A stretch of DNA of 62,049 nt, the filler included. It is 6 parts of 6 records of this genome, joined end to end, with 100 filler letters (N's around TTAATTAATTAA, not from the genome) between each part and the next. Parts side by side here need not be neighbours in the genome. Positions count along the whole stretch, not along the records: positions 23,380 to 45,021 come from SRR2962707_5184; 5 more parts are not named here. One strand, written 5' to 3'. Position numbers and translations under genes: made by a program. The notes beneath the pieces were generated by a model. That model did not search any database, had not been told where the DNA came from, and was given only the letters and a program-made list of their open reading frames with translations. Positions 23,380 through 41,834 of this stretch are shown here, piece by piece. Within the stretch, counting starts at the first letter, position 1, and every line of letters starts with the position of its first letter.

Positions 23380-23502
23380 GAACATCATCTCGCCTTTGCG
23401 CATGGTCGAGGCGTTCTCGATCTCAAGCTCTTCGGCCATGGACAGCAGATCCTTTGGGCTTTTTGCCTTGAGATCGGCCAGATCCAGTTTTTCGATTTCC
23501 AT
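23380..23502 (-). CDS. rho: Transcription termination factor Rho, N-terminal 41 codons (truncated by the contig end)
   Basis: Hand translation MEIEKLDLADLKAKSPKDLLSMAEELEIENASTMRKGEMMF; GAGGAG RBS; absent from the ORF track. Confidence 0.92.
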
Positions 23503-23599
23503 GGAAACTCCTCACAGGATCAGCGTCGCTGCCCGTCTCGTCTTGGTCTTAGGGAAAATGCACCTTCGGACGAAGGCGAGAGAAGCATGTAGCTATGGT

Positions 23600-24044
23600 T
23601 TGGTCCAGAGTCAATCCAAACTGTCCCCAGAGCATGGAAGTGCAGGAGGCTCACCTAATAATAGATTAAGATTATAGAGATGATGAGGAATGTAGGAAGC
23701 GACAATCCTCTGGATAAGTCATTTCTACATGATTTATACACACCCGTGGACTCTGTGGGTAAAAGCACGGAAAATTTCATAAAAAACTAGATCATGATAT
23801 TCTAATACTATGATAAAAAGACAAAAACCGGGTTATTTTTCGATTCACACTCTGTGGATAAGTCTGGAGAGAAGTCTGAAGTTTCGCCGTTGTAAGCGGC
23901 CCTGACTTATTCTTATCCATAGGAGGAAAACATTGCCGACTCGGCGCGGGGAGATGGCGTTATCCCCCGCCTTGCAATACAAGCACTTTTTCCGCAGAAG
24001 AGACTCAGCTGATGTGAGCAGGGTTATCAACGGGTTTATCCACA
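23600..24044. other. Probable chromosomal replication origin (oriC)
   Basis: DnaA boxes TTATACACA 23734-42, TGTGGATAA 23853-61 and TTATCCACA 24036-44; one-mismatch boxes at 23709-17, 23754-62 and 23913-21; AT-rich tract ~23761-23840; several GANTC sites; lies between rho and maf. Confidence 0.8.
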
Positions 24045-24643
24045 TGCCGCAGGAGATCATTCTTGCCTCGGGGTCGTCCATTCGGTCGGATCTGCTGCGT
24101 GCGGCGGGTATTGTGCATCGAATCGATGTGCCACGGATTGACGAAGATGCTGTTCGCTCTGCGCTGGCCCTGGAAGAGGCGTCCCCGCGGGATGTGGCCG
24201 ATACGCTTGCTGAAATGAAGGCCCGAAAGATCAGTGACCGCACTCCGGGCGCCCTCGTTTTGGGCTGTGATCAGGTTCTGTCCATCGACCGTGATATACT
24301 TGGCAAACCAGCGGACATGAATGAAGCGCGGTCGCACCTGCAACGTTTGCGCGGTAAAACGCACATGCTCTTGTCGGCGGCGGTGTTGTATGAGGATAGC
24401 GCCCCGCTTTGGCGGCATGTGGGCATTGCCCGTCTGACCATGCGCGACATTTCGGATACCTATCTGGAAGATTATCTGAACCGCAACTGGGACAGCATCC
24501 ACCATTCGGTTGGCGGCTACAAACTGGAAGAGGAAGGTGTGCGCCTGTTTACCCACATTCAGGGCGATCACTTTACCATTCTTGGCCTGCCTTTGCTTGA
24601 ACTGCTCAATCATCTCATCCTGAAAGGAACCCTCCCTTCATGA
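24044..24643 (+). CDS. maf: Maf family nucleoside triphosphate pyrophosphatase
   Basis: IILASGS.IR..LL, KARKIS, LVLGCDQVL, SVGGYKLE, ILGLPL; start moved to the ATG at 24044. Confidence 0.93.
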   Translation: MPQEIILASGSSIRSDLLRAAGIVHRIDVPRIDEDAVRSALALEEASPRDVADTLAEMKARKISDRTPGALVLGCDQVLSIDRDILGKPADMNEARSHLQRLRGKTHMLLSAAVLYEDSAPLWRHVGIARLTMRDISDTYLEDYLNRNWDSIHHSVGGYKLEEEGVRLFTHIQGDHFTILGLPLLELLNHLILKGTLPS

Positions 24644-25473
24644 CCGTGGACCGGATTCCCCTGGCCGGCGTCATCGGCGCGCCGATCCAACATTCAAAAT
24701 CACCGCGTCTGCACGGGCACTGGCTGCGCAGATATGGGTTAAGGGGGCATTATATCCCGATGGAAATCGCGGCGGCCGATCTGGAAGGCGCGCTTCGTAT
24801 GTTGCCAAATCTGGGCTTCGTGGGCGTCAATGTCACCACGCCCTACAAGGAACGCGTGATGGAGATTGCGGATCTTGTGACGGATCGCGCCACGTTGATC
24901 GGCGCGGCCAACACGCTGATCTTTCGCAAGGACGGCAAGATCCATGCCGACAACACGGATGGCTATGGTTTTATCGAGAATTTGCGCCAGAACGCGCCCA
25001 ATTGGAATCCCGCCGCTGGGCCGGCCGTGGTTATGGGCGCCGGCGGTGCTGCGCGGGCTGTCATTGCGAGCCTGCTGGATTGCGGTGTGCCCGAAATTCG
25101 ACTGACAAACCGGACCCGCGTTAGGGCCGACAAGCTGCGCGAGGATTTTGGCCAGCGTGTCCATGTGGTTGAATGGGTTCAGGCCGGCAATGTGCTGGAC
25201 GATGCAATGACCGTGGTGAACACGACCTCGCTTGGCATGGAGGGCAAACCGGAAATGCGGGTTCCGCTGGATGGGTTGCGGCCCGGCACGCTTGTCACTG
25301 ACATCGTTTATACTCCATTGCAGACGCATCTGTTACGCATTGCTGCCGAACAGGGTTGCATCTGTGTGGACGGTCTGGGGATGTTACTGCACCAGGCCGT
25401 TCCGGGGTTTGAACGCTGGTTTGGCCGACGGCCAGAGGTTGATGATGTGACCCGCGCTGCCATTCTGGAATGA
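24640..25473 (+). CDS. aroE: Shikimate dehydrogenase
   Basis: HSKSP, GVNVT.PYKE, GAANT, DNTDGYGF, GAGGAARA, DGLGMLLHQA. Confidence 0.96.
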   Translation: MTVDRIPLAGVIGAPIQHSKSPRLHGHWLRRYGLRGHYIPMEIAAADLEGALRMLPNLGFVGVNVTTPYKERVMEIADLVTDRATLIGAANTLIFRKDGKIHADNTDGYGFIENLRQNAPNWNPAAGPAVVMGAGGAARAVIASLLDCGVPEIRLTNRTRVRADKLREDFGQRVHVVEWVQAGNVLDDAMTVVNTTSLGMEGKPEMRVPLDGLRPGTLVTDIVYTPLQTHLLRIAAEQGCICVDGLGMLLHQAVPGFERWFGRRPEVDDVTRAAILE

Positions 25474-26063
25474 GGTTCAAGCTGGGCCTGACCGGATCAA
25501 TCGGTATGGGCAAATCGACGACGGCAAATATGTTTGCCGAACAGGGCTGCGCCCTGTGGGATGCAGATGCAGCGGTGCACCGACTTTACAGTACAGGCGG
25601 GGCTGCTGTGGGCCCAATGCGGGCACTGTTCCCGGGGGCAGTTACAGCGCATGGCGTAGACCGGACCACTCTGCGCGAGGTTATTGCCAGAGATCCCACC
25701 GCGATCAGACAGATAGAAGCGATCGTGCATCCGCTGGTGCAGCAGGACCGGCAAAAGTTTGTCACCGCCAACCCGGGGCGCATCGGTGTGTTCGATATAC
25801 CCCTGCTGTTCGAAACTGGCGGGGGCGCGGAAATGGACGCGGTGGCCTGTGTTTATGTATCCGGCGACGTTCAGCGCCAAAGGGTTCTTGCCCGTGGCAC
25901 GATGAGTGTCAGCCAGTTCGAGCAGATCCTGGCGCGCCAGATGCCGATTGTGGAAAAACGCGCCCGATCAGATTATCAGATCGAAACCGACACCCTTGAG
26001 CATGCCCGTGCCCGAGTGCAGGATGTGCTGAAAGATATCGAAAGGCGGCTGACCCATGCGTGA
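25470..26063 (+). CDS. coaE: Dephospho-CoA kinase
   Basis: GLTGSIGMGKST, DADA.VH, IVHPLV, DIPLLFE. Confidence 0.96.
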   Translation: MRFKLGLTGSIGMGKSTTANMFAEQGCALWDADAAVHRLYSTGGAAVGPMRALFPGAVTAHGVDRTTLREVIARDPTAIRQIEAIVHPLVQQDRQKFVTANPGRIGVFDIPLLFETGGGAEMDAVACVYVSGDVQRQRVLARGTMSVSQFEQILARQMPIVEKRARSDYQIETDTLEHARARVQDVLKDIERRLTHA

Positions 26064-26748
26064 GATTGTGCTCGACACCGAAACAACGGGATTTGATCCG
26101 CAATCCGGTGATAGGATCGTCGAAATCGGTGCCGTCGAATTGATGGGTCACATCCCGACAGGAAACACCTATCACCAGTACATCAACCCGGAACGCATGA
26201 TGCCGAACGAGGCGTTTCAGGTCCACGGCTTGGGAGATGATTTCCTAAGAGATAAGCCCAAATTCGCGCAGGTCGCAGAGGCCTTTCTGGCCTTTGTGGG
26301 TGAGTCCAAGATGGTGATCCACAACGCCGCGTTCGACATGAAATTTCTCAACGCCGAATTGCGCAGGTTGGGTATGCGACAGCTGCCCTGGGAACAGGCA
26401 ATCGATACGCTGGCCATCGCGAAAAAGAAATTCCCTGGCTCGCCGGCCTCGCTCGATGCGCTTTGCCGTCGTTTCAACATCGATAATTCGTCGCGCACCC
26501 TGCACGGGGCCCTTCTCGATTCCGAGATTCTGGCCGAAGTTTACCTGGAACTTGTCGGTGGTAAGCAGCCCGATTTTGGTCTGTCCCAGACGCAAAATGA
26601 GTCGCGCACCAGCACGGCTAGCGACCAGAACTGGCGCCCCCTGCCGCGTCCACAGCCCCTGCCCGCGCGGCTTACGGAAATGGAAAAGGCGGCACATGCC
26701 GCCTTTGTTGCCAAGCTTGGGGATTCTGCCCTGTGGTCAAAGGGCTGA
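26056..26748 (+). CDS. dnaQ: DNA polymerase III epsilon subunit
   Basis: LDTETTG, HNAAFD, SLDALC, HGALLDSEIL. Confidence 0.97.
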   Translation: MREIVLDTETTGFDPQSGDRIVEIGAVELMGHIPTGNTYHQYINPERMMPNEAFQVHGLGDDFLRDKPKFAQVAEAFLAFVGESKMVIHNAAFDMKFLNAELRRLGMRQLPWEQAIDTLAIAKKKFPGSPASLDALCRRFNIDNSSRTLHGALLDSEILAEVYLELVGGKQPDFGLSQTQNESRTSTASDQNWRPLPRPQPLPARLTEMEKAAHAAFVAKLGDSALWSKG

Positions 26749-26749
26749 T

Positions 26750-27259
26750 TCAGGCGGTGCCGACCGGTGCCTGTGTGGCCTGACGGCGCGCGATTTCATT
26801 CCGATACAGTGACACAAAGTCGATGGTTTCGAGGTTTAGCGCAGGGAAACCGCCGTCGCGGGTCACGTCCGAAACGATCCGGCGCACGAACGGGAAAAGC
26901 ATGCGCGGGCATTCGATCAGCAGAAATGGATGCAGCTGGTCTTCGGGCACGTTTTCGATGTTGAACACGCCGGCATAGTCCAGTTCCATCAGGAACAGCT
27001 GGTCCCGGCTTTCCTTCGCCTTGGCATCGACCTTCAGCTTCATCACCACTTCGTACTGGTTATCCGCCGTACGCTTGCGCGCGTCGAGGTTCACCTGAAC
27101 CTGAACATCGGGAACGGTTTCGCCGCCCGTACCCCTTTGAGCGAGGATATTTTCAAACGACATATCGCGGATGAACTGTGCCAGCACGCTCATCTTGATC
27201 TGCGGTACCGCGGCGGCACCGTTTTGTGCGCCGTTTGCTGTCGGTTCGTCTGCCATCAT
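26750..27259 (-). CDS. secB: Protein-export chaperone SecB
   Basis: QFIRDMSFEN, YAGVF, LLIECPRMLFPFVR, GGFP.L.L..IDF. Confidence 0.96.
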   Translation of the reverse strand: MMADEPTANGAQNGAAAVPQIKMSVLAQFIRDMSFENILAQRGTGGETVPDVQVQVNLDARKRTADNQYEVVMKLKVDAKAKESRDQLFLMELDYAGVFNIENVPEDQLHPFLLIECPRMLFPFVRRIVSDVTRDGGFPALNLETIDFVSLYRNEIARRQATQAPVGTA

Positions 27260-27347
27260 CTTTTCCCTATGAAGTCAATTTCGCACAGTGCTTAACAGCA
27301 ACCTGCGACTGCCTCAATGGTTACACGCTGCACTGGAACCGTGGAAA

Positions 27348-27857
27348 TCAGTGCTTGGTCCAGCCTGATCCCGGGTGCGTGGGCTGCTTGGTTGGCAGGG
27401 CTTTGTCGGGTGACGTGACGTCTTCGTATTCGCCGTCGATCACATCGCCAGGTGTGCCGGGATGCGGACGCCTTTGTGGACCCGGTCCACCACCCATTTC
27501 AAAACGCTGCACCTTGACGTGTTTGCGCAGGTAATTGATCACGGCGGTCCGGACAGGCGGTGTCAAAAGTGCGAACCCCATGGCATCCGTGAAAAAACCC
27601 GGTGTCAGCAGCAGTACGCCGGCGACAAGGATCATGGCACCGTGGGCCAAGGGTTCGGTCGGATCGCGCAGGTCGGAAAATGACTGACGTACATTTTTAA
27701 GCGCCAGCGCACCCTGTGATCGCACCAGCCACGTCCCCAGAACAGCGGTGAGAACCACAATCGCGAGTGTTGGCCAAAGACCGATCAGCCCCCCGACCTT
27801 GATGAACAAAGCAATCTCGATGATCGGGACTGCTAGAAAAGCCGCAAACAGCCACAT
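27348..27857 (-). CDS. fxsA: FxsA family membrane protein
   Basis: PIIEIALFI.VG, LLLTPGFFTD, VIDGEY. Confidence 0.93.
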   Translation of the reverse strand: MWLFAAFLAVPIIEIALFIKVGGLIGLWPTLAIVVLTAVLGTWLVRSQGALALKNVRQSFSDLRDPTEPLAHGAMILVAGVLLLTPGFFTDAMGFALLTPPVRTAVINYLRKHVKVQRFEMGGGPGPQRRPHPGTPGDVIDGEYEDVTSPDKALPTKQPTHPGSGWTKH

Positions 27858-27961
27858 AGGTCTGGTCTCCTTCTCCTGCGGTGCGGTGGACACAACCGCT
27901 TACAGCACCTACATAAGGTATTAACTGACCCTTTTAAATGCACGCCCACCGCGAGGTCTCG

Positions 27962-28621
27962 ATGAACTCACCGATAATACAGCTTCTGGTTCTTGCCGGA
28001 GTGGCCGTTTTCCTGATTTTGCGCTTGCGCGGCGTGTTGGGAACGCGGGAAGGTTTTGAAAAACCGACGACACCGGCACCGATGTCAAAAAGCAAGACAC
28101 GTCCCGAATTCGAGGTGATCGAGGGGGGGCCGGATCACGATATCATCGATCATGTGCCCGAAGGCAGCCCCGCTGCGGATGCGCTGGCGCGTATGAAGCG
28201 GATCGAGCCGAGCTTTGGCGTGGGTGATTTTCTTGGTGGCGCCCGCGGCGCCTATGAAATGATCTTGATGGCCTTTGAACGTGGTGATCTGGCGGAAATT
28301 CAGCCCTTTTTGGGCCCGGATGTTGCCGAAACCTTTGCTGTGGTGTTGCAATCCCGCAAGGAGCAGGGGCTGGAGATTGAATCAGACTTTGTTGGTATCC
28401 GCGAAATGGTGTTGCAGGATGCGACGCTGAACGACGAAACCGGTCTGGCAGAATTGACGGTCCGGTATGTTGGGGAACTGACCTCGGTCGTGCGTGACAG
28501 CACCGGAACGATCATCGAAGGCAACGCCAAGCAGACCAAAAAGCAAAAAGATATCTGGACCTACGCGCGCAACATGGGCAGTGACGATCCCAACTGGCAA
28601 CTCGTCGCCACGGGCGAATGA
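27962..28621 (+). CDS. Tim44/TimA family adaptor protein
   Basis: FLILRLR.VLG.REG, FL.GARGAYEMI, DIWTYAR..DPNWQLVAT. Confidence 0.93.
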   Translation: MNSPIIQLLVLAGVAVFLILRLRGVLGTREGFEKPTTPAPMSKSKTRPEFEVIEGGPDHDIIDHVPEGSPAADALARMKRIEPSFGVGDFLGGARGAYEMILMAFERGDLAEIQPFLGPDVAETFAVVLQSRKEQGLEIESDFVGIREMVLQDATLNDETGLAELTVRYVGELTSVVRDSTGTIIEGNAKQTKKQKDIWTYARNMGSDDPNWQLVATGE

Positions 28622-28665
28622 TCCGGGCGCGGTCTGCGTCAGCTTTGTTGGATCTGCATCCATGA
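28618..28665 (+). pseudogene. 15-codon mini-ORF; probable in-frame deletion scar of mltA
   Basis: MIRARSASALLDLHP*. Its ATG overlaps the tim44 stop (ATGA) and its TGA overlaps the smr start (ATGA), at the position normally held by mltA. Confidence 0.5.
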
Positions 28666-29255
28666 CTCGGCGGCGCGTGCGTCCCGAAGAGCTTGAGCTT
28701 TGGCGCGAGGTGGCGCGCACTACCGAAAAGCAGGGCCGACGGGACCACTTTGCACCCATCGGCCCTGCCCCGCGCAAGCCGATCAGCGAAAATGCGCCCA
28801 ATCCAGTCGCGCCACTGGCACCGTTCACGCTGGGTCAGACATCCCAGACCCGTCCGGAAAGTCCGTCCTTGCCCCGCACCACGGCACAGCGGCTGAACGG
28901 CGCGCCGGTTCAGATGGATAAAAAGGCGCATACCCGTCTCAAGCGCGGCAAGCTCGCGCCAGAGGCGCGGATGGACCTGCACGGCATGACGCTGGATCAG
29001 GCGCATCCAAGCCTGATCCGGTTCATCCTGACACAACAGTCCCAAGGCGCTCGGCTGGTTCTGGTAATCACCGGCAAGGGTCAGCGCGAAGACCCCTATG
29101 CGCCCATGCCCCACCGCCGCGGCGTGTTGAAACAGCAGGTGCCGATGTGGCTGCGTATGGCACCCGTGGCGCAGGCAGTGCTTCAGGTGACAGAGGCGCA
29201 TATCCGACATGGCGGCGGTGGGGCCTATTACGTCTATCTGCGTCGCAGTCGTTAG
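28662..29255 (+). CDS. Smr/MutS2 domain protein
   Basis: ARMDLHGMT, LVLVITGKG, GVLKQQVP.WL, HGGGGAYYVYL. Confidence 0.93.
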   Translation: MTRRRVRPEELELWREVARTTEKQGRRDHFAPIGPAPRKPISENAPNPVAPLAPFTLGQTSQTRPESPSLPRTTAQRLNGAPVQMDKKAHTRLKRGKLAPEARMDLHGMTLDQAHPSLIRFILTQQSQGARLVLVITGKGQREDPYAPMPHRRGVLKQQVPMWLRMAPVAQAVLQVTEAHIRHGGGGAYYVYLRRSR

Positions 29256-30478
29256 ACGTTGCCGACCTTTAGCAAGGGCGTCGCCTGCCGCACACCGATC
29301 AGCATCATCACTGTGGTAAAGATAAAATAGGCGGCGATGGCGACATACTGCGTGTCGATGGACACGTCGGCGTCGATCAGAACGCCGGTCAGCCCTGGCC
29401 CGATAGCTGTGCCAAAGACCATGACCGCTGTGCCCATAGCCTTGATTGAACCCATGTGCTGGGTGCCAAAGAATTCCGCCCAGAAGGCATTTGGCAGGGT
29501 CGATTGCATGCCTTGGGTGAGGCCCAGGAACATCAGGCCCAAGAATGCGCCGCCAAGGGTTCCGGACTGTGCAAAAAACAGGAATGCGACTGCGGACGGC
29601 AATTGGAACCACGGCAACACCCGTGGGGTGCCGAACCGGTCGAGCGCCCAACCCGAGGCGATCATTGATCCGACCCCGAACAGTGTGAAGACGGGGAACA
29701 TGGTGACCAGCGACAGATGATCCCAGCCCTTGGTAGCGGCAAAATGCACTTGATGGAAAAAGAACGCGGTGGTGAACGCGGGCGGCCCTAAAAGCGCTGG
29801 CACCATGAACCAGAACAGCCGGTTACGAAACACTTCGCCACGGCGCCAATGGCGGCCTTCCATGCCGGTGGATTGATCGGTTTGTGCCATGCTTTGTGGC
29901 GTGCGCTCCTCGCGCAGCAACAGGAAGAGCACCGGAATTGCTGCCAGAGCCACGCCGGCGACGATAACCCAGAGCAGGCGCCAGTCCACGACCAGCATCA
30001 GCGAAACAACGGTGATTGGCAGAATCGCCTCGCCCACCGCGATGCCAAGGCCGGCTATCGACAGCGCCTTGCCTCTTGTGGCGACAAACCAGCGCGACAT
30101 GGACACCACCGCGATGTGATTGGTCATGCCTTGTCCGAAAAATCGCAGTGCGAAAATGACCACCGGCAGCAGGGCGGCCATGGGATTGAGCGCCATGAAA
30201 AGGCAGGCGAACGCCAGAAGGCACAGCACAACGGCCCCGAGAATACGGGAGCGGTAATGGTCCGTCAGCCCGCCGGCCCAGACCATCACAATGGCTGAAC
30301 AGGTGGTGCCCAAGGCATAAATTCCACCCCAGGCGCCGTTGCTCAGGGAAAAAGCATCGCGGATTTCACCAGAAAAGACTGAGATAAAGAAGGTCTGCCC
30401 AAAGCTGGATAGAAAGCTGAGCATCGCGCCGGCGGCGAGCCATCGGGCATTTTCGCGGAAAAAGGAGTCAGAAGCCAT
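29252..30478 (-). CDS. MFS transporter
   Basis: About 12 TM helices, SSFGQTFFIS, GWALDRFG. Confidence 0.9.
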   Translation of the reverse strand: MASDSFFRENARWLAAGAMLSFLSSFGQTFFISVFSGEIRDAFSLSNGAWGGIYALGTTCSAIVMVWAGGLTDHYRSRILGAVVLCLLAFACLFMALNPMAALLPVVIFALRFFGQGMTNHIAVVSMSRWFVATRGKALSIAGLGIAVGEAILPITVVSLMLVVDWRLLWVIVAGVALAAIPVLFLLLREERTPQSMAQTDQSTGMEGRHWRRGEVFRNRLFWFMVPALLGPPAFTTAFFFHQVHFAATKGWDHLSLVTMFPVFTLFGVGSMIASGWALDRFGTPRVLPWFQLPSAVAFLFFAQSGTLGGAFLGLMFLGLTQGMQSTLPNAFWAEFFGTQHMGSIKAMGTAVMVFGTAIGPGLTGVLIDADVSIDTQYVAIAAYFIFTTVMMLIGVRQATPLLKVGNV

Positions 30479-30539
30479 GAATCCTCTTTGTCGCCGACAA
30501 TTGAGCTGTGCAAGCGGATTTCGCCGCCGCCCGATTTCA

Positions 30540-30900
30540 CATCTGCATGGCCCGCCGTTCTGACAGATTTACGTGCAATCCCTGCAGTACCCAAGCGATA
30601 AGCATAACGGCTGGCGCCGACTCGCGGTGGCGCACCTTTTCCTCGGTCCAGAAACCGGTTTCAGGTATCTTTTTTGTGCCATTCCTTGGCATCAGGTTCA
30701 CAAGTTATTCAAATATTGTCGCCGACAACTTGGAAAAGCGTAGCTAAAACGTCACGCCTGCGTGCGGTGTATGCAATGCCGGTGGCTTCATTCATCTTGC
30801 GTACCTTGCTCTGGGCTTTGCATGTCGGTCTACTGCGGCGATATTGCTGCAACCATGACGCCACTTGGGGCAGGGAAGGCGGATCCAAAACTGCCGTTGA
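30540..30900 (-). pseudogene. Eroded relic of crtD (methoxyneurosporene desaturase); 5' and possibly 3' ends
   Basis: HGCSNIAAVDRHAKP/(frameshift)SKVRK...RDVLATLFQVVGDNI resembles the recalled CrtD N-terminus (GxDVTVxxRHxxPGGKMR...RHVFxxLFxxxGExL). RGKGAPPRVGA (30613-30645) resembles the C-terminal AGGGAHPGAGV. Divergent from crtE. Alignments were made by eye. Confidence 0.5.
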
Positions 30901-31028
30901 CAGGTGGTGCATACCGGGATTTTGGTCAGGGTTTTGGTGATATGCAGACTGAATTGGAATGAGTACTTATTATGATTTACGCAGTGGGCTGATGGCAGCA
31001 TGACACATCCAGTCGCAGGAGCCCGCCC

Positions 31029-31901
31029 ATGCCCCTGAATGCGCGTATAGAAGCCGCTGTACGCAATGCCGTTTCAGTTGGGCAAGGCGGGTTCGCGCCG
31101 CCGCATCTTTCCAAGGCGCTGTGCTATGCGACCACCCCCGGCGGCGCACGGATCAGGCCGACCATCCTAACATCCGTGGCGATGGCCTGTGGGGATGACC
31201 AACCTCAGCTGACGGATGCGGCGGCGGCGGCGCTTGAACTTGTGCACTGTGCCAGCCTTGTGCATGACGATCTGCCCTGCTTTGATGATGCGGATGTGCG
31301 GCGAGGTAAACCTTCGGTCCACAGGGCCTATTCGGAATCGTTGGCAGTTTTGACGGGCGATTCCCTGATCGTTCTGGCGTTCGAAACACTGGCAAGAGCG
31401 GCAACCTCTGTGTCCGACAGAGGAATCCGGTTGGTCCTGTCGCTGGCCCAGAAGACCGGTATGCCCGGCGGTATCTGCGCCGGGCAGGGCTGGGAAAGCG
31501 AACAAAAGATTGATCTTTCAGCCTATCACCAGTCAAAAACCGGGTCGCTTTTTATTGCCGCTACCCAAATGGGTGCTATTGCCGCCGGCCAGGACTGCGA
31601 ACCGTGGCATGAACTCGGTGCCCGCATAGGTGAGGCGTTTCAGGTCGCGGACGATCTGTGCGACGCACTGCAGGATGCAGCCACCCTTGGCAAACCGGCA
31701 GGTCAGGACGCATTGCACGGACGGCCCAATGCGGTCTCTCAACTTGGGATTGAGGGGGCGATGCAACGGCTCGAAGATATCCTTGCCGGCGCGATCGCAT
31801 CGATTCCGTCCTGCCCGGGCGAGGCGCAGCTGGCGCAGATGGTCAAAATGCAGGCGGATCGTATCATGCCCGTTATGAAGCCCGCAAAGGCCCGTGCCTA
31901 A
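31029..31901 (+). CDS. crtE: Geranylgeranyl diphosphate synthase, photosynthesis-cluster type
   Basis: PGGARIRP, HCASLVHDDLPCFDD..RRGKP, GICAGQGWESE, YHQSKTG, FQVADDL, IPSCPGEA.L. Confidence 0.93.
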   Translation: MPLNARIEAAVRNAVSVGQGGFAPPHLSKALCYATTPGGARIRPTILTSVAMACGDDQPQLTDAAAAALELVHCASLVHDDLPCFDDADVRRGKPSVHRAYSESLAVLTGDSLIVLAFETLARAATSVSDRGIRLVLSLAQKTGMPGGICAGQGWESEQKIDLSAYHQSKTGSLFIAATQMGAIAAGQDCEPWHELGARIGEAFQVADDLCDALQDAATLGKPAGQDALHGRPNAVSQLGIEGAMQRLEDILAGAIASIPSCPGEAQLAQMVKMQADRIMPVMKPAKARA

Positions 31902-31962
31902 GGCGCGATCCTGATGCATGTATCACCCAAGTCCGCAAAGGTGCCTGCCCAATGAAGATGTG

Positions 31963-32127
31963 GTCTTAGGGATCTGTGGTTTCTTTTGCAGAGCTGACAA
32001 GATCCTGAGTTGAGCGGCAGACGGGTGGCAGAACATCGATATTCAAAACCTGATTTTCCTGGCTTATATTGCAGACCATCTGATCAAGGCGCGCTGGGCT
32101 GCGCACCCGGGGATCGGGGTCACGAGC
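31963..32127 (+). pseudogene. Eroded 3' relic of bchP (geranylgeranyl reductase)
   Basis: One frame reads VLGICGFFCRADKILS*AADGWQNIDIQNLIFLAYIADHLIKARWAAHPGIGVTS, colinear with the recalled BchP C-terminus (..DxDVQRLTFEAYMNKKLVKARPLAHLKIGVKN). Internal stop at 32011; no start; directly upstream of idi. Confidence 0.65.
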
Positions 32128-32147
32128 CCACCAAAAGGAGACGATAC

Positions 32148-32684
32148 ATGGCCACGAGTATTCCCACCTGGGTGAATGGAACCCTAGTTCCGGTGGGCAA
32201 ACTTGAGGCGCATGTAAAAGGCCTGCGGCACAAGGCCGTGTCAGTTTTTGTCGTCCGTGGGAAAGAGGTGCTGATCCAGCGTAGGGCGATGGGCAAATAT
32301 CATACGCCCGGTCTATGGGCGAACACCTGTTGTACCCATCCGCAATGGGATGAAGCCAGCGCGGATTGCGCCGACCGTCGTCTGCGCGAAGAGCTTGGCA
32401 TCAGTGGCTTGTCGCTTCGGTATCGCGATACCGTGGAATACCGCGCAGATGTTGGTGGCGGGCTGATCGAACATGAAGTGGTCGATATTTTCGTCGGCAA
32501 GGCCCCTGCCGGGCTGACCTTTGATCCGGACCCGTCCGAGGTGATGGCGACGCGCTGGCTCGATTATGCCACGCTGTTGTCAGAGATAAAGGCCACCCCC
32601 GAGAAGTTTACACCATGGTTGCAGATCTATCTTGAATCCCACGCGGGCAGCATATTTTCGCCGGAGCTGCTTGCGGGGATCTGA
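32148..32684 (+). CDS. idi: Isopentenyl-diphosphate delta-isomerase type 1
   Basis: KL.AH..GLRHKAVSVF, QRRA..KYHTPGLWANTCCTHP, RRLREELG, EHEV, FTPWL; AAGGAG RBS before the ATG at 32148. Confidence 0.95.
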   Translation: MATSIPTWVNGTLVPVGKLEAHVKGLRHKAVSVFVVRGKEVLIQRRAMGKYHTPGLWANTCCTHPQWDEASADCADRRLREELGISGLSLRYRDTVEYRADVGGGLIEHEVVDIFVGKAPAGLTFDPDPSEVMATRWLDYATLLSEIKATPEKFTPWLQIYLESHAGSIFSPELLAGI

Positions 32685-32966
32685 CCTGTTGGAATGAACG
32701 CCTTTTGTCGGTACACCATCCTGCCCTAAGTGACAGATTCAGCCGAAACGCCTTTTTAAAAGACCAAAATCGCAGAGACGGTCCCCAAAATCCTGGCTAG
32801 AAAACAGTGCGGGTGTTTCCAGATTACCGGAGCGGGGACGGCGCCGCCATTTGGACGCCTGATGCGCTACGTTTCCTAGCGTGCGGTTCATGCCATTTTG
32901 GTATAGCGTTGTTGCCACAGGATATGAGTCTTTTTCCCAAAGGAACGCGTTGGTGAGGGAACTTTG

Positions 32967-34076
32967 TCATATCCCCGAGACGCTTTGCGCCTGGCTGGTC
33001 AGGCCGAATACGCTGCCGATCAGACTGAAAACAGTTTGGGCCTTTGTCAGCGGGGATTCGGTGGCAAGCACGGTATCCTGTGGGTGAATGACAAACTTTT
33101 GGGCCGCGAATAACCCGTCCGCCGAGGTCAAATCAAAGGTAAAGATGACCTGCTGCCGCCCTGGCCCGGCATTGTCCGGGCGCACCTGACCCGCTGCATA
33201 TTCGCGCAGGACCATCACCCCCTTGGGGTCGGCGCGCGAATCCTGAATGCCACCCATCAGCGACATTGCCTCCAACGCGGTGATTTGATCTTTGGGGAAA
33301 TAGATCATGTCCTCGCTTCCCGAGGCGCCCAGAGCGGTAAAGCTGCGCTGGTCCTCTTCTACCACGATGGTGTCGCGGGCGCGGAGGGTCGTATTCCGCG
33401 CACCGGATTCATATAGATCCTTGGCAGTAATCCGATAGGTTGATCCACCGCGCAGCAGTTTTACCACGGGATTGCGCAGGGTCGGCGAAATGCCCCCGCC
33501 GGTGGCCAGCAGGGTAAGGATCTTATAGTTGCGGGATGGCATGGGATAGCTATCTGGGCGCGCCACGCCACCAACCAGATCGACGGAATTCGCCAAACCG
33601 GGTATCAGGCTTAGCTGAACCTGGGCCGAAGGCACGATTGTTTCGAGTTGGGACTGAACCCTTTCACGTGCGGATGCGGGTGTCAGGCCGCGGATATGCA
33701 CTTCGTTTACGTAGGGCAGAAAGATCGCGCCGCTTGCGCCGACCTCAATTGATTTCAGTGTGGTCACCTTTTCCGTCGCGCCGGTGAGCAGAGAATTTTC
33801 CTGGCTGTCCCAAATGATGACATCAACCATATCGCCGGTTTCAATCACCGAAGAGTTTACCCCCTGGCTGGCACCGATCCAATGATCGTCATATTCCACC
33901 CCGGTCATTGGCCAGGCTGATATGCCGGGCATGTTGGCCCCGGTTACCGGTACCACTTGGAAAGTCGGATTTTCGGCCCGGGATTCCGCCAACACTTCGG
34001 ATTGAAGCGCGGCGCCGCGTGGCAGACTGCAGGCGGCAAGAAAAACGACTGCCGCAAACATGACAGTGAGGCGCAA
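32967..34076 (-). CDS. Polysaccharide export outer-membrane lipoprotein (Wza-like)
   Basis: Lipobox LAAC, I.TGD.V.V.IW, GAIFLPYV, SLBB-like repeats, ADPKGV.VLR; start approximate. Confidence 0.88.
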   Translation of the reverse strand: MRLTVMFAAVVFLAACSLPRGAALQSEVLAESRAENPTFQVVPVTGANMPGISAWPMTGVEYDDHWIGASQGVNSSVIETGDMVDVIIWDSQENSLLTGATEKVTTLKSIEVGASGAIFLPYVNEVHIRGLTPASARERVQSQLETIVPSAQVQLSLIPGLANSVDLVGGVARPDSYPMPSRNYKILTLLATGGGISPTLRNPVVKLLRGGSTYRITAKDLYESGARNTTLRARDTIVVEEDQRSFTALGASGSEDMIYFPKDQITALEAMSLMGGIQDSRADPKGVMVLREYAAGQVRPDNAGPGRQQVIFTFDLTSADGLFAAQKFVIHPQDTVLATESPLTKAQTVFSLIGSVFGLTSQAQSVSGI

Positions 34077-34193
34077 GGAATTCCGCAAATATAGACCCCT
34101 GAAAAAATCGATTGACGTTCGGTTTCTTTCTACTGGTTGATGACGGATACACAAAGACAGTTTATGCGGGTGCAGGGAAAAGGACCGCGGAAA

Positions 34194-35060
34194 GTGGCGC
34201 AAATACGGCAGCATGCAAGAGTACTGGTTCTGGGGGCGAACGGAAAAGTCGCCAGATTGCTACAGGCCGTCTGGGCCAATGGCGGCGTTGACCGGATAGA
34301 ATTTACGCCAGTAGTGCGTCGTGACAGCGGTTTGCATGAACAGGTGATCTGGTCCCCAGGAACGGCCTCCTCCTCTTTGCCAAGGGCGGATGCGGTTATC
34401 GCGTTCTGGGGGGTTACGCCGGGCCCGGAGGCCAAGCTGGAAGATAATAGCAGGTTGGCGAAGGTCGCGATGGATATTGCCCGGACTGTTGGAGCAGACC
34501 GCGTTCTGCATTGTTCCAGCTCTGCGGTCTATGCGCCTGCGACAGAGCCGCTGAGCGAAGACGTTCCGGCGAATCCGATCTCGGCCTACGGTCACGCCAA
34601 GCTTGATATGGAGCGTGTCGCTGCGACCCATCAGGCAAACCATCCAATGGGCCCTCGCGCCGTGTGCCTGCGAATCGGAAATGTGGCCGGCGCCGAAAGC
34701 CTGTTTGGTGCAATAAACCGATCCGGTGATGTACATCTTGACCGCTTTGCCGATGGTGCCGGGCCTGAACGCAGCTATATCGCGCCATCGGATCTGGCGC
34801 ATGTGCTTGCGGTACTTGTCGGTCACCCTGTCCGGGATCTGCCTGCCACGCTGAACATCGCGGCGCCTGTGGCCACGTCAATGGAATCAATCGCGCGTGC
34901 GGCGCAGCGGCGGGTGATCTGGCGAGATGCATCTGAGGGTGCGGTGCGGCGGCTTGTGCTTGACACGTCCAGGTTGACTGCGCTGTGCCCCATGCATCGC
35001 GAATCTGCCCGACCAGAGCATCTGGTGGCGGACTGGCTGCGGTGGAAAGAAGCTGGATGA
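34194..35060 (+). CDS. NAD-dependent epimerase/dehydratase family protein
   Basis: VLVLGANGKVA, SSSAVY, YGHAK, LRIGNVAG; start uncertain. Confidence 0.85.
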   Translation: MAQIRQHARVLVLGANGKVARLLQAVWANGGVDRIEFTPVVRRDSGLHEQVIWSPGTASSSLPRADAVIAFWGVTPGPEAKLEDNSRLAKVAMDIARTVGADRVLHCSSSAVYAPATEPLSEDVPANPISAYGHAKLDMERVAATHQANHPMGPRAVCLRIGNVAGAESLFGAINRSGDVHLDRFADGAGPERSYIAPSDLAHVLAVLVGHPVRDLPATLNIAAPVATSMESIARAAQRRVIWRDASEGAVRRLVLDTSRLTALCPMHRESARPEHLVADWLRWKEAG

Positions 35061-35680
35061 CGCCGCAGAAAAAGATATTCGATATGCTAGGTGCTGCGGG
35101 ATTGGGTATCTTGTTGTCGCCACTCTTGATTGGTGTGGCGATGGTGATTTTTGTTCGGGACGGGCGTCCCGTGTTGTACAGATCGAAGCGGATGAAAACA
35201 CCTACACAGGCGTTTCTATTGTGGAAGTTCCGGACCATGACCGTGTTAGACAGGGATTCCGGCGTCTCTGGCGGCCACAAGGTGTCGCGCGTAACAGACA
35301 CGGGGCGAATACTGCGACGCAATCGTCTTGATGAGCTGCCGCAGCTTTGGAACATTCTTCGGGGTGATATCAGCTTTGTCGGGCCGAGACCGCCTTTGCC
35401 GCGCTATGTCAGGTTGTATCCGAAAATCTACAGCGCGGTGTTGCAGGCCCGCCCCGGCATTACCGGCCTTGCCTCGGTTGCGTTCCATAAACACGAAGAA
35501 AAACTTTTGGCCAACTGCCGGACGGCTCAGGAAACCGAAGACGTCTATTGCCGCCGCTGCATTCCGCGCAAAGCCCGCCTAGACCGTATTTATGCCGATC
35601 AGAGCACAGTTTGTAAGGATTTCAAATTGATGTGGGCCACGATTATAAAACGGATAAACATGCACCGGCGGGAGCGCTGA
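35057..35680 (+). CDS. Bacterial sugar transferase (priming phosphoglycosyltransferase)
   Basis: KFRTM, RVT..GR.LR..RLDELPQLWNIL.GDISFVGPRP, RPGITGLA. Confidence 0.93.
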   Translation: MTPQKKIFDMLGAAGLGILLSPLLIGVAMVIFVRDGRPVLYRSKRMKTPTQAFLLWKFRTMTVLDRDSGVSGGHKVSRVTDTGRILRRNRLDELPQLWNILRGDISFVGPRPPLPRYVRLYPKIYSAVLQARPGITGLASVAFHKHEEKLLANCRTAQETEDVYCRRCIPRKARLDRIYADQSTVCKDFKLMWATIIKRINMHRRER

Positions 35681-35796
35681 CCGCATATTCTGATGAGAGT
35701 TTCCGTGTAATACGCGCCCTTTTTGCCCAGCTGCGTATCATCGGCCTGAGTTGCCACATACAGATTCGGCCGCGATTAACTGAACATTTTTATATG

Positions 35797-35811
35797 TTAA
35801 GCCAACCGTAA
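35797..35811. promoter_or_regulatory. CtrA-like box upstream of motB
   Basis: TTAA-gccaacc-GTAA, one mismatch to TTAA-N7-TTAA. Confidence 0.5.
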
Positions 35812-35862
35812 GGCAGCTTCTGCTACCCCTCGTTCTGGGTGAGTACAAAAAAGGTGGTGAAA

Positions 35863-36705
35863 ATGGCTGTAGACAGCAATGTCGCGCCAATCGTTATCAT
35901 CAAACGGAAAAAGATCGTCGCGGGCGGCGGGCACCATGGTGGTGCTTGGAAGGTTGCGTATGCAGACTTCGTGACTGCGATGATGGCATTTTTCCTATTG
36001 ATGTGGCTGTTGAGTGCGACGACGGAAAAACAGAGAAGCGGACTTGCGGACTACTTTTCTCCGACAATTGCGATCAGCCGCATGTCGAGCGGCGGAGATG
36101 GCAGTTTCGGAGGGGAAACGCCCTTTTCCGAAGAGACGCTGCCCAAGGCGGGCAGGGGTGCCACCAGTCAAAGCCCGACTGAATCCAAAGAAGCGCGCGG
36201 GCAGGACGGTAAAAGCGAAGAGGGAAGAGCCGAGACCGCAGAAGACGAGATCTTTAAGGAGATCGAGAAGATGCTCACGGGGAGCAGCGGCGAAAGTATT
36301 GTCGCCGATCCGCTGCTAAAGCACATCGAAACCCGTGTCACCGACGAAGGTCTTGTGGTCGAGCTTTATGAGACCGAGGAAGCCCGGCTGTTCGACTCGG
36401 ACGGTACACCGACCGAACTAATGAAAGATTTGTCAGCCGTCATCCTGCGCGTGTCGGACCTGGTGTCCAACCCGCTTGCAATCGAAGGCCACGTTCGTTC
36501 TGCACCGATTGTGGTGGCACAGGACCGGTCTTGGGAAACATCGACCGAACGCGCTTCGGTGATGCGCGGCCTGCTTGGTGATCAGGGTATGTCAAATGCC
36601 AGATTCGATCGTGTCACGGCCCATGCTGACCGTGAGCCGGTCCGCAGCAACCGGATGGAATTCCGCAATAGCCGTATTGAAGTGATCTATCTTCGACGTC
36701 TTTGA
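35863..36705 (+). CDS. motB: Flagellar stator protein MotB
   Basis: HHGGAWKVAYADFVTAMMAFFLLMWL plus OmpA-like C-terminus. Confidence 0.95.
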   Translation: MAVDSNVAPIVIIKRKKIVAGGGHHGGAWKVAYADFVTAMMAFFLLMWLLSATTEKQRSGLADYFSPTIAISRMSSGGDGSFGGETPFSEETLPKAGRGATSQSPTESKEARGQDGKSEEGRAETAEDEIFKEIEKMLTGSSGESIVADPLLKHIETRVTDEGLVVELYETEEARLFDSDGTPTELMKDLSAVILRVSDLVSNPLAIEGHVRSAPIVVAQDRSWETSTERASVMRGLLGDQGMSNARFDRVTAHADREPVRSNRMEFRNSRIEVIYLRRL

Positions 36706-36742
36706 AAAGTATCGACATCTAGAATGGACTCGATTTTATCTG

Positions 36743-36757
36743 TTAGCGGCCCGTTAA
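36743..36757. promoter_or_regulatory. CtrA-like box upstream of flgE
   Basis: TTAG-cggcccg-TTAA, one mismatch. Confidence 0.5.
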
Positions 36758-36813
36758 GTCTGCGCGCGTATCTGTTGCTTTGAAAGTACTTGATACAGCA
36801 GAAAGGCGTGTCC

Positions 36814-38115
36814 ATGACCATTTCGTCCTCCCTGAATGCCGGCGTAGCGGGACTATCTTCCAACGCAAGTAAACTTGCTACGATTTCCGACAATATCGCT
36901 AACTCATCGACCTATGGATACAAGCGCGTAGAAACCGATTTTCAGACCATGGTCACCTCGTCGGGTAACGGCAAGTACACGGCCGGCGGCGTTCGGGCAA
37001 GTACACAGCGGCTGGTAGATGTTAGTGGATCATTGGTATCCACAACTAACTCGACGGATCTTGCCATCAGTGGTCGCGGGTTTTTGCCCGTCGCCAGCCT
37101 GAGCGAGGTCGAGAACGATAACGGTCTCCCGCAGATGTTCCTGACCACCACGGGATCCTTCCGGACAAACTCGGATGGTTATCTTGTGACAGCATCTGGG
37201 CAGGTTCTCATGGGCTTCCCGGCCGACGACGATGGTGCGATTCCGGCATACCCTAGGGATACGAGCGAAGGCTTGGAGCCTATTCAGATCAATAGAAACC
37301 AATTGGAAGGCGTACCGACGACAACGATGTCCTTGGGCGTCAACTTGCCCGCTTCAGATACATATTTTGATGCCTCGGGCGATCCTCAGGAAGTGCAGGT
37401 TGGATACTATGACAACCTTGGTGTGTCTGAAAGTTTCAATGTGACATTCACGCCGACAATCCCTGCAACCGGGGCGTCGAACGCTTGGACAGTTACAGTG
37501 ACAGATTCGGCGCAGTCTGGCGCGACTGTCGGCGAATATGAAGTGACGTTCACAGACTCCCGAACCGCAGGCGGCAATCTGGCCAGCGTGTCAACGACAT
37601 CGGGTGGAGTTTACGATGCGGCCACCGGAACAGTAATAGTCAACGCCGCCAGCGGTCCGATCGAGATTTTCATAGGCACGATCGGCGGCGATGATGGCCT
37701 TACCCAATTAGGTTACAATTTCGCACCTCTCAATATCTCGAAGGATGGCTCTCCGGTCGGCAGCATGACCTCTATCGAGGTCGACGCGCTGGGTATGGTT
37801 AATGCCTATTTCGATACCGGCATCGTCCGGACCATTTACCAGGTGCCGCTGATCGACCTTCCTAACCCGAACGGACTGATTGCGATGGATAATCAGGTCT
37901 ATATGCCGTCGAACGACAGTGGCTCCTACTACCTGTGGAACGCTGCTGATGGCCCGGTCGGAGAGGTCGTGTCATATTCTCGCGAGGAATCGACCACTGA
38001 CGTGGCCAGGGAGCTGACCGATCTGATTCAGACACAGCGCGCCTACTCATCGAACGCCAAGGTCATTCAGACCGTTGACGAGATGTTGCAGGAAACCACG
38101 AACATCAAGCGCTGA
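36814..38115 (+). CDS. flgE: Flagellar hook protein
   Basis: ISDNIANSSTYGYKR, DLAISGRGF, EESTTDVARELTDLIQTQRAYSSNAK. Confidence 0.96.
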   Translation: MTISSSLNAGVAGLSSNASKLATISDNIANSSTYGYKRVETDFQTMVTSSGNGKYTAGGVRASTQRLVDVSGSLVSTTNSTDLAISGRGFLPVASLSEVENDNGLPQMFLTTTGSFRTNSDGYLVTASGQVLMGFPADDDGAIPAYPRDTSEGLEPIQINRNQLEGVPTTTMSLGVNLPASDTYFDASGDPQEVQVGYYDNLGVSESFNVTFTPTIPATGASNAWTVTVTDSAQSGATVGEYEVTFTDSRTAGGNLASVSTTSGGVYDAATGTVIVNAASGPIEIFIGTIGGDDGLTQLGYNFAPLNISKDGSPVGSMTSIEVDALGMVNAYFDTGIVRTIYQVPLIDLPNPNGLIAMDNQVYMPSNDSGSYYLWNAADGPVGEVVSYSREESTTDVARELTDLIQTQRAYSSNAKVIQTVDEMLQETTNIKR

Positions 38116-38165
38116 TCAAAGTTAGACCGCGCTAAACCGACTCCATAGAATCAAAGGAAACCGTA

Positions 38166-39614
38166 ATGTCCCTTTCTGGTGCCCTGTCCAATGCGCTCAG
38201 CGGTCTCACCGCGAATGCGCGCGCCGCTACTCTTGTATCGTCGAATATTTCGAATGCCATGACGGACGGATATGCCCGTCGCGAACTGGCGACTTCCTCC
38301 AACGGCATGGGGTTCTATGGCGGGGTTCATATCGACGGCGTAACCCGATCAATCAATCCCGTGATTCTCGCGGATCGCCGTCTTTCCGATGCGGAAACCG
38401 GTAAGGGCCAACAGCTGCAAAGCTTCGCATTGCGCATGGAAAATCTGATGGGGGACGCTACTGACAGTGGATCACTCAGCGGACGCATGGCAGCGTTGGA
38501 AAATGCGCTGATCACTGCAGCGAGCAATCCAGCCTCAACACAGAGGCTGGATACTGTTTCACGCGCAGCGGACGATCTTGCAAATACCTTCAATTCCCTT
38601 TCGGACGGTATCCAGACAGCGCGAGAAGATGCTGACAGGTCGATCAGTTTTCAGGTCGAATCGTTGAACGATACGCTTGCTCAGGTTGAAAGTCTGAACA
38701 CGAAAATAAGCAAGGCCATCGTACTGGGCCGTGACCCCTCATCTTTGATGGATCAGCGACAGAGGGCAATCGACACCGTCGCAGAAGCCGTGCCGGTGCG
38801 CTCTGTTGAGCGTGGGGATGGCTCAATCGCACTGTTTACTATTGGCGGCGTGACGCTTGTTGATGATAAGGCCTCGACGATTGAGTTTTCCAACACGGCG
38901 ATCATCGTACCGCATATGACTCAGGTCGGCGGTCTGCTCTCTGGGCTCACGATCAATGGCCGGGCTATGGACACCTCGGAAGATGGCCCTTTGTCGGGTG
39001 GATCCCTTGGGGCGCAATTCCAGATCCGCGACCAGGATGCAGTCGAAATGCAGGCTCGGCTCGATGGAATCGCACGAGACGCCATCGAACGCCTTGGACC
39101 GGGCGGACCCGATAGTACACTCGGGGCGATAGATCCGGGTGTTTTCATGGATGCAGGCTCGGCTTTTGTGGCGGCTGACGAAATCGGGATTTCAGGGCGC
39201 ATCAAGCTGAACCCCATTGTATCAGTGAATGGTGGCGAGACCTGGCGCCTACGGGACGGGCTTGGAGCTGCGGCAGTCGGCGAAGTAGGTGATTCCAGTC
39301 TTCTTAACGGCATTTACGATATTCTTACAGAAACCAGTGTACCGGGTTCGACAAGCCTGGATCCCACAGCGCGCAGCTTGTCCGGTCTTGTATCGGAGTG
39401 GGCGTCCGGCGTCGGCGCGTTTCGTGTGCGCCAAGACGCACAACTTAGCTATGCGCAGGCGCAGAACGTCGCGTTGACCGAACTCGAACTGGCCGAGGGC
39501 GTGGATACCGATCAGGAACTGCAGCTGCTGATGCTGCTCGAACAGAATTACCAGGCCAATGCCAAAGTCATGACAACTGTTGACCAGTTGCTTCAGGCCA
39601 TCCTGGCGATCTAA
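38166..39614 (+). CDS. flgK: Flagellar hook-associated protein 1
   Basis: ALSGL..VSSNISNA.T.GYARR; GVDTDQEL..L..LEQNYQANAKV. Confidence 0.95.
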   Translation: MSLSGALSNALSGLTANARAATLVSSNISNAMTDGYARRELATSSNGMGFYGGVHIDGVTRSINPVILADRRLSDAETGKGQQLQSFALRMENLMGDATDSGSLSGRMAALENALITAASNPASTQRLDTVSRAADDLANTFNSLSDGIQTAREDADRSISFQVESLNDTLAQVESLNTKISKAIVLGRDPSSLMDQRQRAIDTVAEAVPVRSVERGDGSIALFTIGGVTLVDDKASTIEFSNTAIIVPHMTQVGGLLSGLTINGRAMDTSEDGPLSGGSLGAQFQIRDQDAVEMQARLDGIARDAIERLGPGGPDSTLGAIDPGVFMDAGSAFVAADEIGISGRIKLNPIVSVNGGETWRLRDGLGAAAVGEVGDSSLLNGIYDILTETSVPGSTSLDPTARSLSGLVSEWASGVGAFRVRQDAQLSYAQAQNVALTELELAEGVDTDQELQLLMLLEQNYQANAKVMTTVDQLLQAILAI

Positions 39615-39624
39615 GGAGAACAAG

Positions 39625-41741: not shown

Positions 41742-41834
41742 ATCGGGCGAACCGATGACACCAAAAAGATCCACGCTGAGATAATTTTAACATTCGCATG
41801 ACATCCTGATGGTGTCGGTTAACGGAGCTTTCGC

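Follow-up and report, generated by a model that had tools for sequence, protein, structure and literature searches.

We describe here a locus in a 62,049-nt stretch of DNA (hereafter, the window), within the part derived from SRR2962707_5184 (positions 23,380 to 45,021), where crtE and idi are enclosed by a major facilitator superfamily (MFS) transporter gene and a wza-like polysaccharide export gene. The MFS-wza interval is very probably what is left after the collapse of a ~46-kb photosynthesis gene cluster (PGC) of the chromosome and, with the same high probability, the ancestors of this marine bacterium were phototrophs. From 29252 to 34214 the gene order reads MFS (minus strand), a 550-nt spacer, crtE (plus), a 246-nt spacer, idi (plus), a 282-nt spacer and the wza-like gene (minus). 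The initial annotation of this DNA had proposed that a PGC was deleted at its ancestral site, leaving two isoprenoid genes intact, and had suggested comparing the MFS-to-wza interval in close genomes; the comparison returned collinear flanks and a ~46-kb PGC between the same genes in relatives, which upholds the proposal.

Synteny is the decisive evidence that the locus is a PGC remnant. A scan of 185,579 genomes, one per prokaryote species, yielded 600 candidate stretches, of which 424 were confirmed as CrtE relatives, and the best 80 were used. The closest locus among these 80, G001, separates the homologues of the same MFS and wza-like genes by ~46 kb, against 2.5 kb in the window. Positions 23396-30478 of the window correspond to 105891-97781 of contig C4 of G001, crtE to 87646-86777, idi to 73554-74213 in the opposite orientation, and 32967-44956 to 51405-40086. 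Read from the wza side, the G001 interval runs through a cytochrome c gene, hemA, acsF, puhB, puhA, bchH, bchN, bchF, ppsR, bchG, pucC, bchP, idi, dxs, pufM, pufL, bchZYXC, crtF, crtE, crtD, crtC, tspO, crtB and crtI. Three further PGC-bearing relatives have the same flanks (G406, G409 and G410), and pufLM is present in all four. The spacing from MFS through crtE and idi to wza is ~46 kb in G409 and G410, as in G001; in G406 the spacing of wza, idi and crtE is that of G001, and an MFS match is not listed on that contig. On the left, the former PGC site is bounded by the MFS gene (29252..30478, minus strand; PF07690, 121.8 bits), a non-PGC gene that is 82% identical to C4 97781-98989 of G001 and 86% to its counterpart in G094, the closest genome, whose flank proteins are 66-96% identical to those of the window. 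The right flank is the wza-like gene (32967..34214, minus strand; PF02563 and PF22461), with identities of 75% to C4 50215-51405 and 85% to G094. The crt end of the PGC adjoins the MFS gene in G001, G409 and G410, and its other end adjoins the wza-like gene in these three genomes and in G406.

Inside the interval, flank homology stops at 30575, homology to crtD and its promoter begins at 30686, and a segment carrying idi (32025-32783) is inverted relative to both flanks. By comparison with G001, three blocks are missing: ~9.7 kb on the crt side (C4 88012-97684, with the rest of crtD, crtC, tspO, crtB, crtI and more), 12.5 kb from crtE to idi, and ~22 kb from bchP to wza (the cytochrome c gene, hemA, acsF, puhBA, bchH, bchN, bchF, ppsR, bchG, pucC and most of bchP). 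When stop-to-stop open reading frames (ORFs) of C4 56000-116999 of G001 and of a Marivita genome (G004) were compared with the 62-kb window by tblastn, only crtE, idi and a bchP relic were matched outside the shared flanks, as the initial annotation had anticipated in stating that the contig has no other photosynthesis gene; neither pufLM, bchXYZ nor any other reaction-centre or bacteriochlorophyll gene was found within the window. An Rfam search over the window gave no match at the gathering score.

Both survivors are intact and under purifying selection. The crtE gene (31029..31901, plus strand) is predicted to encode a PGC-type polyprenyl (geranylgeranyl) diphosphate synthase of 290 residues, with a PF00348 score of 166.7 bits (cut-off 27), both Asp-rich motifs (DDLPCFD at residue 80 and DDLCD at residue 208), and no change in any of the 108 columns that are invariant in 83 PGC-linked CrtE proteins. 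Its amino acid identity is 82% to the PGC-linked CrtE of G001 and 69-82% across the best 80 of the 424 relatives; in a database containing these 80 loci, CrtD had a tblastn match in 80 loci. The protein falls below the NCBIfam equivalog cut-offs both for CrtE (NF045685, 139.7 versus 460) and for farnesyl diphosphate synthase (NF045485, 191.1 versus 275), and the gene is named crtE because it is orthologous to PGC-linked genes, not on account of these models. The idi gene (32148..32684, plus strand) encodes an intact type 1 isopentenyl-diphosphate isomerase of 178 residues that exceeds the equivalog cut-offs of TIGR02150 (110.2 versus 105.8) and NF002995 (130.1 versus 127) and is 73% identical to idi of G001, with bchP sequence directly upstream in the window. 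The two intact genes 246 nt apart are thus as first described. Likewise, G001 presents the arrangement from which the initial annotation had reasoned: crtD is divergent from crtE, which is followed by crtF-bchCXYZ-pufLM, and on the same contig idi ends a ppsR-bchG-pucC-bchP-idi series in which the bchP stop overlaps the idi start.

Eroded coding relics had been claimed in both spacers. The one between crtE and idi is robust: the last ~48 codons of bchP (32025..32147, plus strand) remain recognizable, and a BchP profile built from 10 sequences matches frame +1 at 32029-32124 over profile positions 347-378 of 392, QNIDIQNLIFLAYIADHLIKARWAAHPGIGV being aligned with HDIDVQKLTFEAYMNKKLVKARPMAHLKIGI, with a score of 17.4 bits versus 2.4 for the best of 100 dinucleotide shuffles. 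By nhmmer, the 3' end of bchP from G001 matches the same spacer with an E-value of 4.4e-7, and homology begins at 32025-32029 in all four PGC-bearing relatives. In an alignment of eight genomes the relic shows 57-65% identity to PGC genomes, against 86-93% among the PGC genomes themselves; its frame is interrupted by one stop and two indels (18 nt inserted, 17 nt deleted), and the only piece retained in all eight is GGAGAC, the Shine-Dalgarno sequence of idi (32137-32142). No full-length open frame matching TIGR02023 (BchP) was encountered at the locus.

For crtD, the claim holds for DNA and fails for protein. A CrtD profile scored -3.3 bits on the MFS-crtE spacer (shuffle maximum, 4.4), and six-frame translations of both spacers, compared with the 80 CrtE loci by tblastn, gave nothing better than an E-value of 0.09. 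By nhmmer in a database of 290 kb, 30686-30844 matched the 5' part of crtD at the syntenic position, both in G406 (21.3 bits, E 1.1e-5) and in G001 (16.3 bits, E 3.5e-4), the best of 30 shuffles reaching 12.5 bits; a DNA profile of the region upstream of crtE, built from 79 loci across the family, placed its top window match at the same spot, but with an E-value of 0.12. In whole-interval alignments to G406 and G001, crtE, the former intergenic region and this sequence are joined without interruption. We therefore regard 30686..30940 (minus strand), eroded and without an open frame, as a putative relic of about the first 90 codons of crtD, consistent with the predicted divergence of crtD from crtE.

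The course of events cannot have been as simple as first proposed, namely one deletion that began at the crtE 3' end and reached into bchP. Each of the four PGC-bearing relatives that share the flanks has bchP-idi antiparallel to (convergent with) crtE at a distance of ~12.5 kb, and in other arrangements, those of G003, G005 and L076, idi lies upstream of crtE; one deletion is thus insufficient, and the observed order calls for several deletions and an inversion, the bch/puh half beyond bchP toward wza requiring a deletion of its own. The ancestral layout probably ran from MFS through crtI, crtB, tspO, crtC and crtD on one strand, then crtE, crtF, bchCXYZ, puf and dxs on the other, then idi, bchP, pucC, bchG and ppsR pointing back toward crtE, and on through bchH, puhA, acsF, hemA and the cytochrome c gene to wza. 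In the common ancestor of the window organism and G094, one deletion would have extended from about codon 90 of crtD to the MFS promoter, and further deletions would have removed crtF through dxs, and codons 1 to ~346 of bchP through to the wza end. A segment of ~0.76 kb comprising the 3' end of bchP, idi and downstream sequence would have been inverted, so that idi became co-directional with crtE, 246 nt downstream of it. A larger inversion followed by deletion would lead to the same result.

The junctions can be followed along the interval. The region upstream of the MFS gene (30479..30575) retains flank homology, since 30301-30575 matches C4 97958-97684 of G001 by nhmmer with an E-value of 9.3e-33; the left deletion junction (30576..30685, 110 nt) matches no PGC genome, and beyond the crtD relic the former crtD-crtE divergent promoter (30941..31028, plus strand) would now serve as promoter and leader of crtE. 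The junction of the crtE 3' end with the inverted segment (31902..32024) has no homology in the PGC genomes. The inverted segment ends with native idi-downstream sequence (32685..32783, plus strand) that moved together with idi, as 32026-32783 matches C47 80317-81098 of G406 by nhmmer, reaching ~100 nt beyond the idi stop. For the right junction spacer (32784..32966) homology was not found, and nhmmer searches of 32640-33000 and 32685-32966 for dxs or another relic between idi and wza were without match. The final 24 nt of crtE recur at 31929-31952, 51 nt downstream of the original, as an imperfect copy (19 of 24 positions) that may be a trace of rearrangement. An exact 13-nt palindrome, TTGTCGCCGACAA, occurs twice at a distance of 228 nt, at 30488-30500 just upstream of the MFS start and at 30716-30728 within the crtD relic; roughly 0.05 such pairs would be expected by chance in 2.6 kb, conservation does not extend to G094, and the palindrome may act as an operator.

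Chimeric assembly of a metagenome bin might also have created the junctions. We give this explanation next to no credence: nothing specific speaks for it, and G094, an independent assembly, repeats the MFS-crtE-idi-wza layout with idi likewise inverted, and its bchP breakpoint lies no more than 16 nt from that of the window (C4 73532 versus 73548). In G094 idi is intact and crtE (contig 32, 75970-76883; L100, L111/L112) is a pseudogene that has lost its ATG and bears a frameshift due to a 19-nt deletion, so that the two survivors are unequally protected. This genome has no PF00124 (pufLM) match, no ppsR and no protein of the crtI family over the cut-off; here as elsewhere, absences in relatives are absences from assemblies of unstated completeness.

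Two other relatives, G407 and G408, also hold an intact crtE and an intact idi between MFS and wza, and lack pufLM. Their remnants resemble that of the window in site and in the two genes kept, and differ from it in that idi is in its native antiparallel orientation, ~60 nt from the 3' end of crtE, with other breakpoints: the bchP relic measures ~16 nt in G407 and ~112 nt in G408, and the crtD relic ~230 nt in G407 and nil in G408. The spacers of G407 and G408 fail to align with each other (28-42% identity) and their junctions differ. In G006 (contig 1, 4088727-4091118; L119) the MFS-wza gap is an empty 118 nt, which reflects either complete loss or a lineage that never had a PGC at this site. 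A maximum-likelihood tree of 16 syntenic flank proteins (5,377 columns) has the topology (G004,G006,((G409,G410),(G408,(G407,G001,(G406,(G094,window)))))), with support of 100/100 for the pairing of the window with G094 and for its sister relation to the PGC-bearing G406. Given the flank tree and the differing junctions and orientations, the simplest reading is that the PGC was lost at least three times independently at one site, crtE and idi being spared each time. A single origin of the four remnants with passage between species was considered and rejected: the approximately unbiased (AU) test on the flank tree gives p 1e-61 for three remnants and 3e-43 for four, for groups defined post hoc with the flank tree already inspected, and the differing junctions and idi orientation contradict it as well. 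The CrtE+Idi tree is short, and a single remnant clade is not rejected on it (AU test, p 0.079).

These trees also bear on the reverse scenario, in which the crtE-idi pair was ancestral at the site and the relatives gained or assembled a PGC around it. Whole-PGC horizontal transfer is documented in the family, according to Brinkmann et al. 2018 (PMC6052148); such a gain is nevertheless extremely improbable here, as it is already contradicted by the bchP and crtD fragments that adjoin idi and crtE, the remnant lineages branch from among PGC-bearing ones, the CrtE+Idi and flank trees are congruent, and decayed PpsR operators are present.

Further loci may belong to this picture. In a screen of a 401-genome sample, 178 genomes were pufM-positive; of the others, at least G094 and G296 carry crtE. 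Three further pufM-negative genomes of the family (G103, G127 and G063; L133, L134 and L135, respectively) have a PGC-type idi (65-70% identity) ~200-300 nt from a homologue (53-60%) of the cytochrome c gene that closes the G001 PGC on the wza side; they may be additional remnants with different survivors. A lone PGC-type crtE (L132; G296 contig 1, 100484-101190; 68% over 280 residues) was found in a genome with no PF00124 match, and no other PGC ORF was matched in the surrounding 12-kb stretch (~5.5 kb upstream, 5.8 kb downstream).

The regulation of the survivors appears to have changed with the loss of the cluster. The four PGC-bearing relatives each have two copies of the motif TGT-N12-ACA, which we take to be the PpsR operator consensus, upstream of crtE, as palindromes at -66 and -42 (-74 and -50 in G409); G094 has one copy, and G407, G408 and the window have none. 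Aligned with G001, the first palindrome of the window (30964-30981) is without both half-sites and the second (30988-31005) is without one, so that both PpsR-type operators have decayed. The ppsR gene would have been lost along with the cluster, as is seen in the sister G094, and crtE may now be expressed free of PGC control. Co-transcription of crtE and idi is plausible because the spacer has no terminator-like site on the plus strand; transcripts of idi would arise either as read-through of crtE transcription or at a promoter within the relic of bchP, where a weak promoter-like site is predicted at 32042-32070, and would be translated from the Shine-Dalgarno sequence that had always been present within the bchP 3' end. 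Between the window and G094, 48 of 66 positions agree in the crtE promoter, whereas the relic has 57 of 101 (p 0.006); constraint on the promoter in G094 was not retained as an explanation, being weak and barely above idi third positions (115 of 179).

One may ask whether the organism is still phototrophic, its PGC having moved to another replicon (plasmid outsourcing) and the locus being a scar with leftover crtE and idi. Plasmid-borne PGCs exist in Rhodobacteraceae (PMC6052148), and one of the 80 CrtE loci (L039) is on a Tateyamaria plasmid. We nonetheless consider relocation improbable, as G094, with the same scar, is without pufLM, ppsR and crtI, G407 and G408 are without pufLM, and decay of the PpsR operators would be unexpected were PpsR still there. 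Several points weigh against the interpretation of the locus as the trace of a lost PGC with two retained genes. The absences concern the 62-kb window of this organism, not its whole genome, together with the sister genome, and a PGC elsewhere, for instance on a plasmid, is compatible with that coverage. The putative crtD relic is the weaker of the two, visible as DNA, invisible as protein and moderately significant. Inverted or direct repeats at the inversion junctions amount to matches of 11-13 nt, about chance level. Retention of the two genes is not obligatory, as crtE is already a pseudogene in G094 and both genes are absent from the G006 site. Finally, the ratios of nonsynonymous to synonymous divergence (dN/dS) are mostly approximate: those suggested by the initial annotation for crtE and idi indicate purifying selection, the 21 crtE pairs spanning 0.055-0.125 (0.085-0.112 for crtE of the window) and the 28 idi pairs 0.077-0.215, alike in remnant and PGC lineages, and are rough in most pairs as dS exceeds 1. 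The cleanest pair is idi of the window and G094, whose path lies wholly after the loss (dN 0.139, dS 0.75, ratio 0.185).

This pair is also pertinent to the idea that crtE and idi are neutral leftovers, functionless and simply not yet decayed. The broken crtE of G094 and the missing pair of G006 fit such a view, as do the lack of a carotenoid desaturase (crtI family, over the cut-off) in G094, G407 and G408 and the two further polyprenyl synthases present in each genome searched. Yet dN/dS is 0.06-0.2, the post-loss idi comparison included, the invariant CrtE residues are all unchanged, the adjoining bchP relic has eroded far below the identity seen among PGC genomes, and both genes are intact in three independent remnants, which leaves neutral persistence unlikely. 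It is tempting to hypothesize instead that crtE and idi form a selected isoprenoid module independent of photosynthesis, although we hold this as a tentative and rather doubtful proposition. It builds on the three independent collapses at one site that ended at the borders of crtE and idi, and the inversion would have created a new two-gene operon under a former PGC promoter without PpsR operators.

Concerning the left flank and its surroundings, the MFS frame is open upstream of the ATG at 30478 for ~40 codons (30479-30598) and resembles the G001 homologue there, so the true start, or a conserved leader, may be farther upstream. Among the 17 DnaA-box-like sites of the window (TTATCCACA, at most one mismatch), seven, two of them perfect, are clustered at 23709-24044, just upstream of maf-aroE-coaE-dnaQ, which are followed by secB, fxsA, a Tim44-like gene and smr. 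This region is likely to be oriC, ~6.5-7 kb from the remnant, and the distance of ~7 kb put forward by the initial annotation is plausible in view of the cluster.

As to known systems, the window locus can be read against the chromosomal PGC of Rhodobacteraceae, the order of which in Dinoroseobacter shibae is crtI, crtB, tspO, crtC, crtD, crtE, crtF, bchCXYZ, pufBALMC, DXPS, idi, bchP, pucC2, bchG, ppsR, as tabulated by Brinkmann et al. 2018 (PMC6052148). Gene order and orientations are the same in G001 between the homologues of the window's flanks, and crtE, idi and the two relics of the window are orthologous pieces of that cluster; unlike it, the window keeps two of ~40 genes, with the idi segment inverted, and has lost its genes for the reaction centre, bacteriochlorophyll, carotenoids and regulation at this locus. 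An extra, incomplete PGC with gain and loss between two strains is reported in Citromicrobium by Zheng et al. 2012 (PMC3338782); this too is a partial photosynthesis gene set in an alphaproteobacterial genome, whereas the window locus is a two-gene remnant at the native site. That paper and Brinkmann et al. were the only relevant items that literature searches for phrases on PGC remnants brought up, and the words 'remnant', 'relic' and 'pseudogene' do not occur in the main texts, supplements aside, of PMC6052148 and Kopejtka et al. 2017 (PMC5553392). Both studies, in the parts seen, address PGC loss versus transfer by tree reconciliation; in PMC6052148 losses are drawn from presence and absence on trees, whereas here they are read from breakpoints, relics and flanks, three times at one site.

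The process itself is a known one, of which this locus is a new and well-documented instance; the new element is the recurrent sparing of crtE and idi. A 'regressive evolution' model for how members of the Roseobacter group lost phototrophy was reportedly formulated by Koblizek et al. in 2013, and our case resembles it in that a heterotroph arises from a phototroph via loss of the PGC. The patchy distribution of phototrophy in Rhodobacteraceae, and whether it reflects loss or horizontal gain, has so far been argued mainly from trees; the locus adds physical evidence of loss in the form of conserved flanks, mapped breakpoints, pseudogene scraps and decayed operators. A graded series is now available at one site, from an intact 46-kb cluster through three independent two-gene remnants and a remnant with a dying crtE to an empty site, which allows the decay of the cluster to be dated and ordered and the question to be posed of why crtE and idi are repeatedly spared. 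Such remnants can also serve as markers of past phototrophy in genomes that are now without a PGC. Should the two genes prove to be a selected module, non-phototrophic roseobacters would use geranylgeranyl diphosphate to make some other product, and a part of the PGC would have been exapted rather than merely left over.

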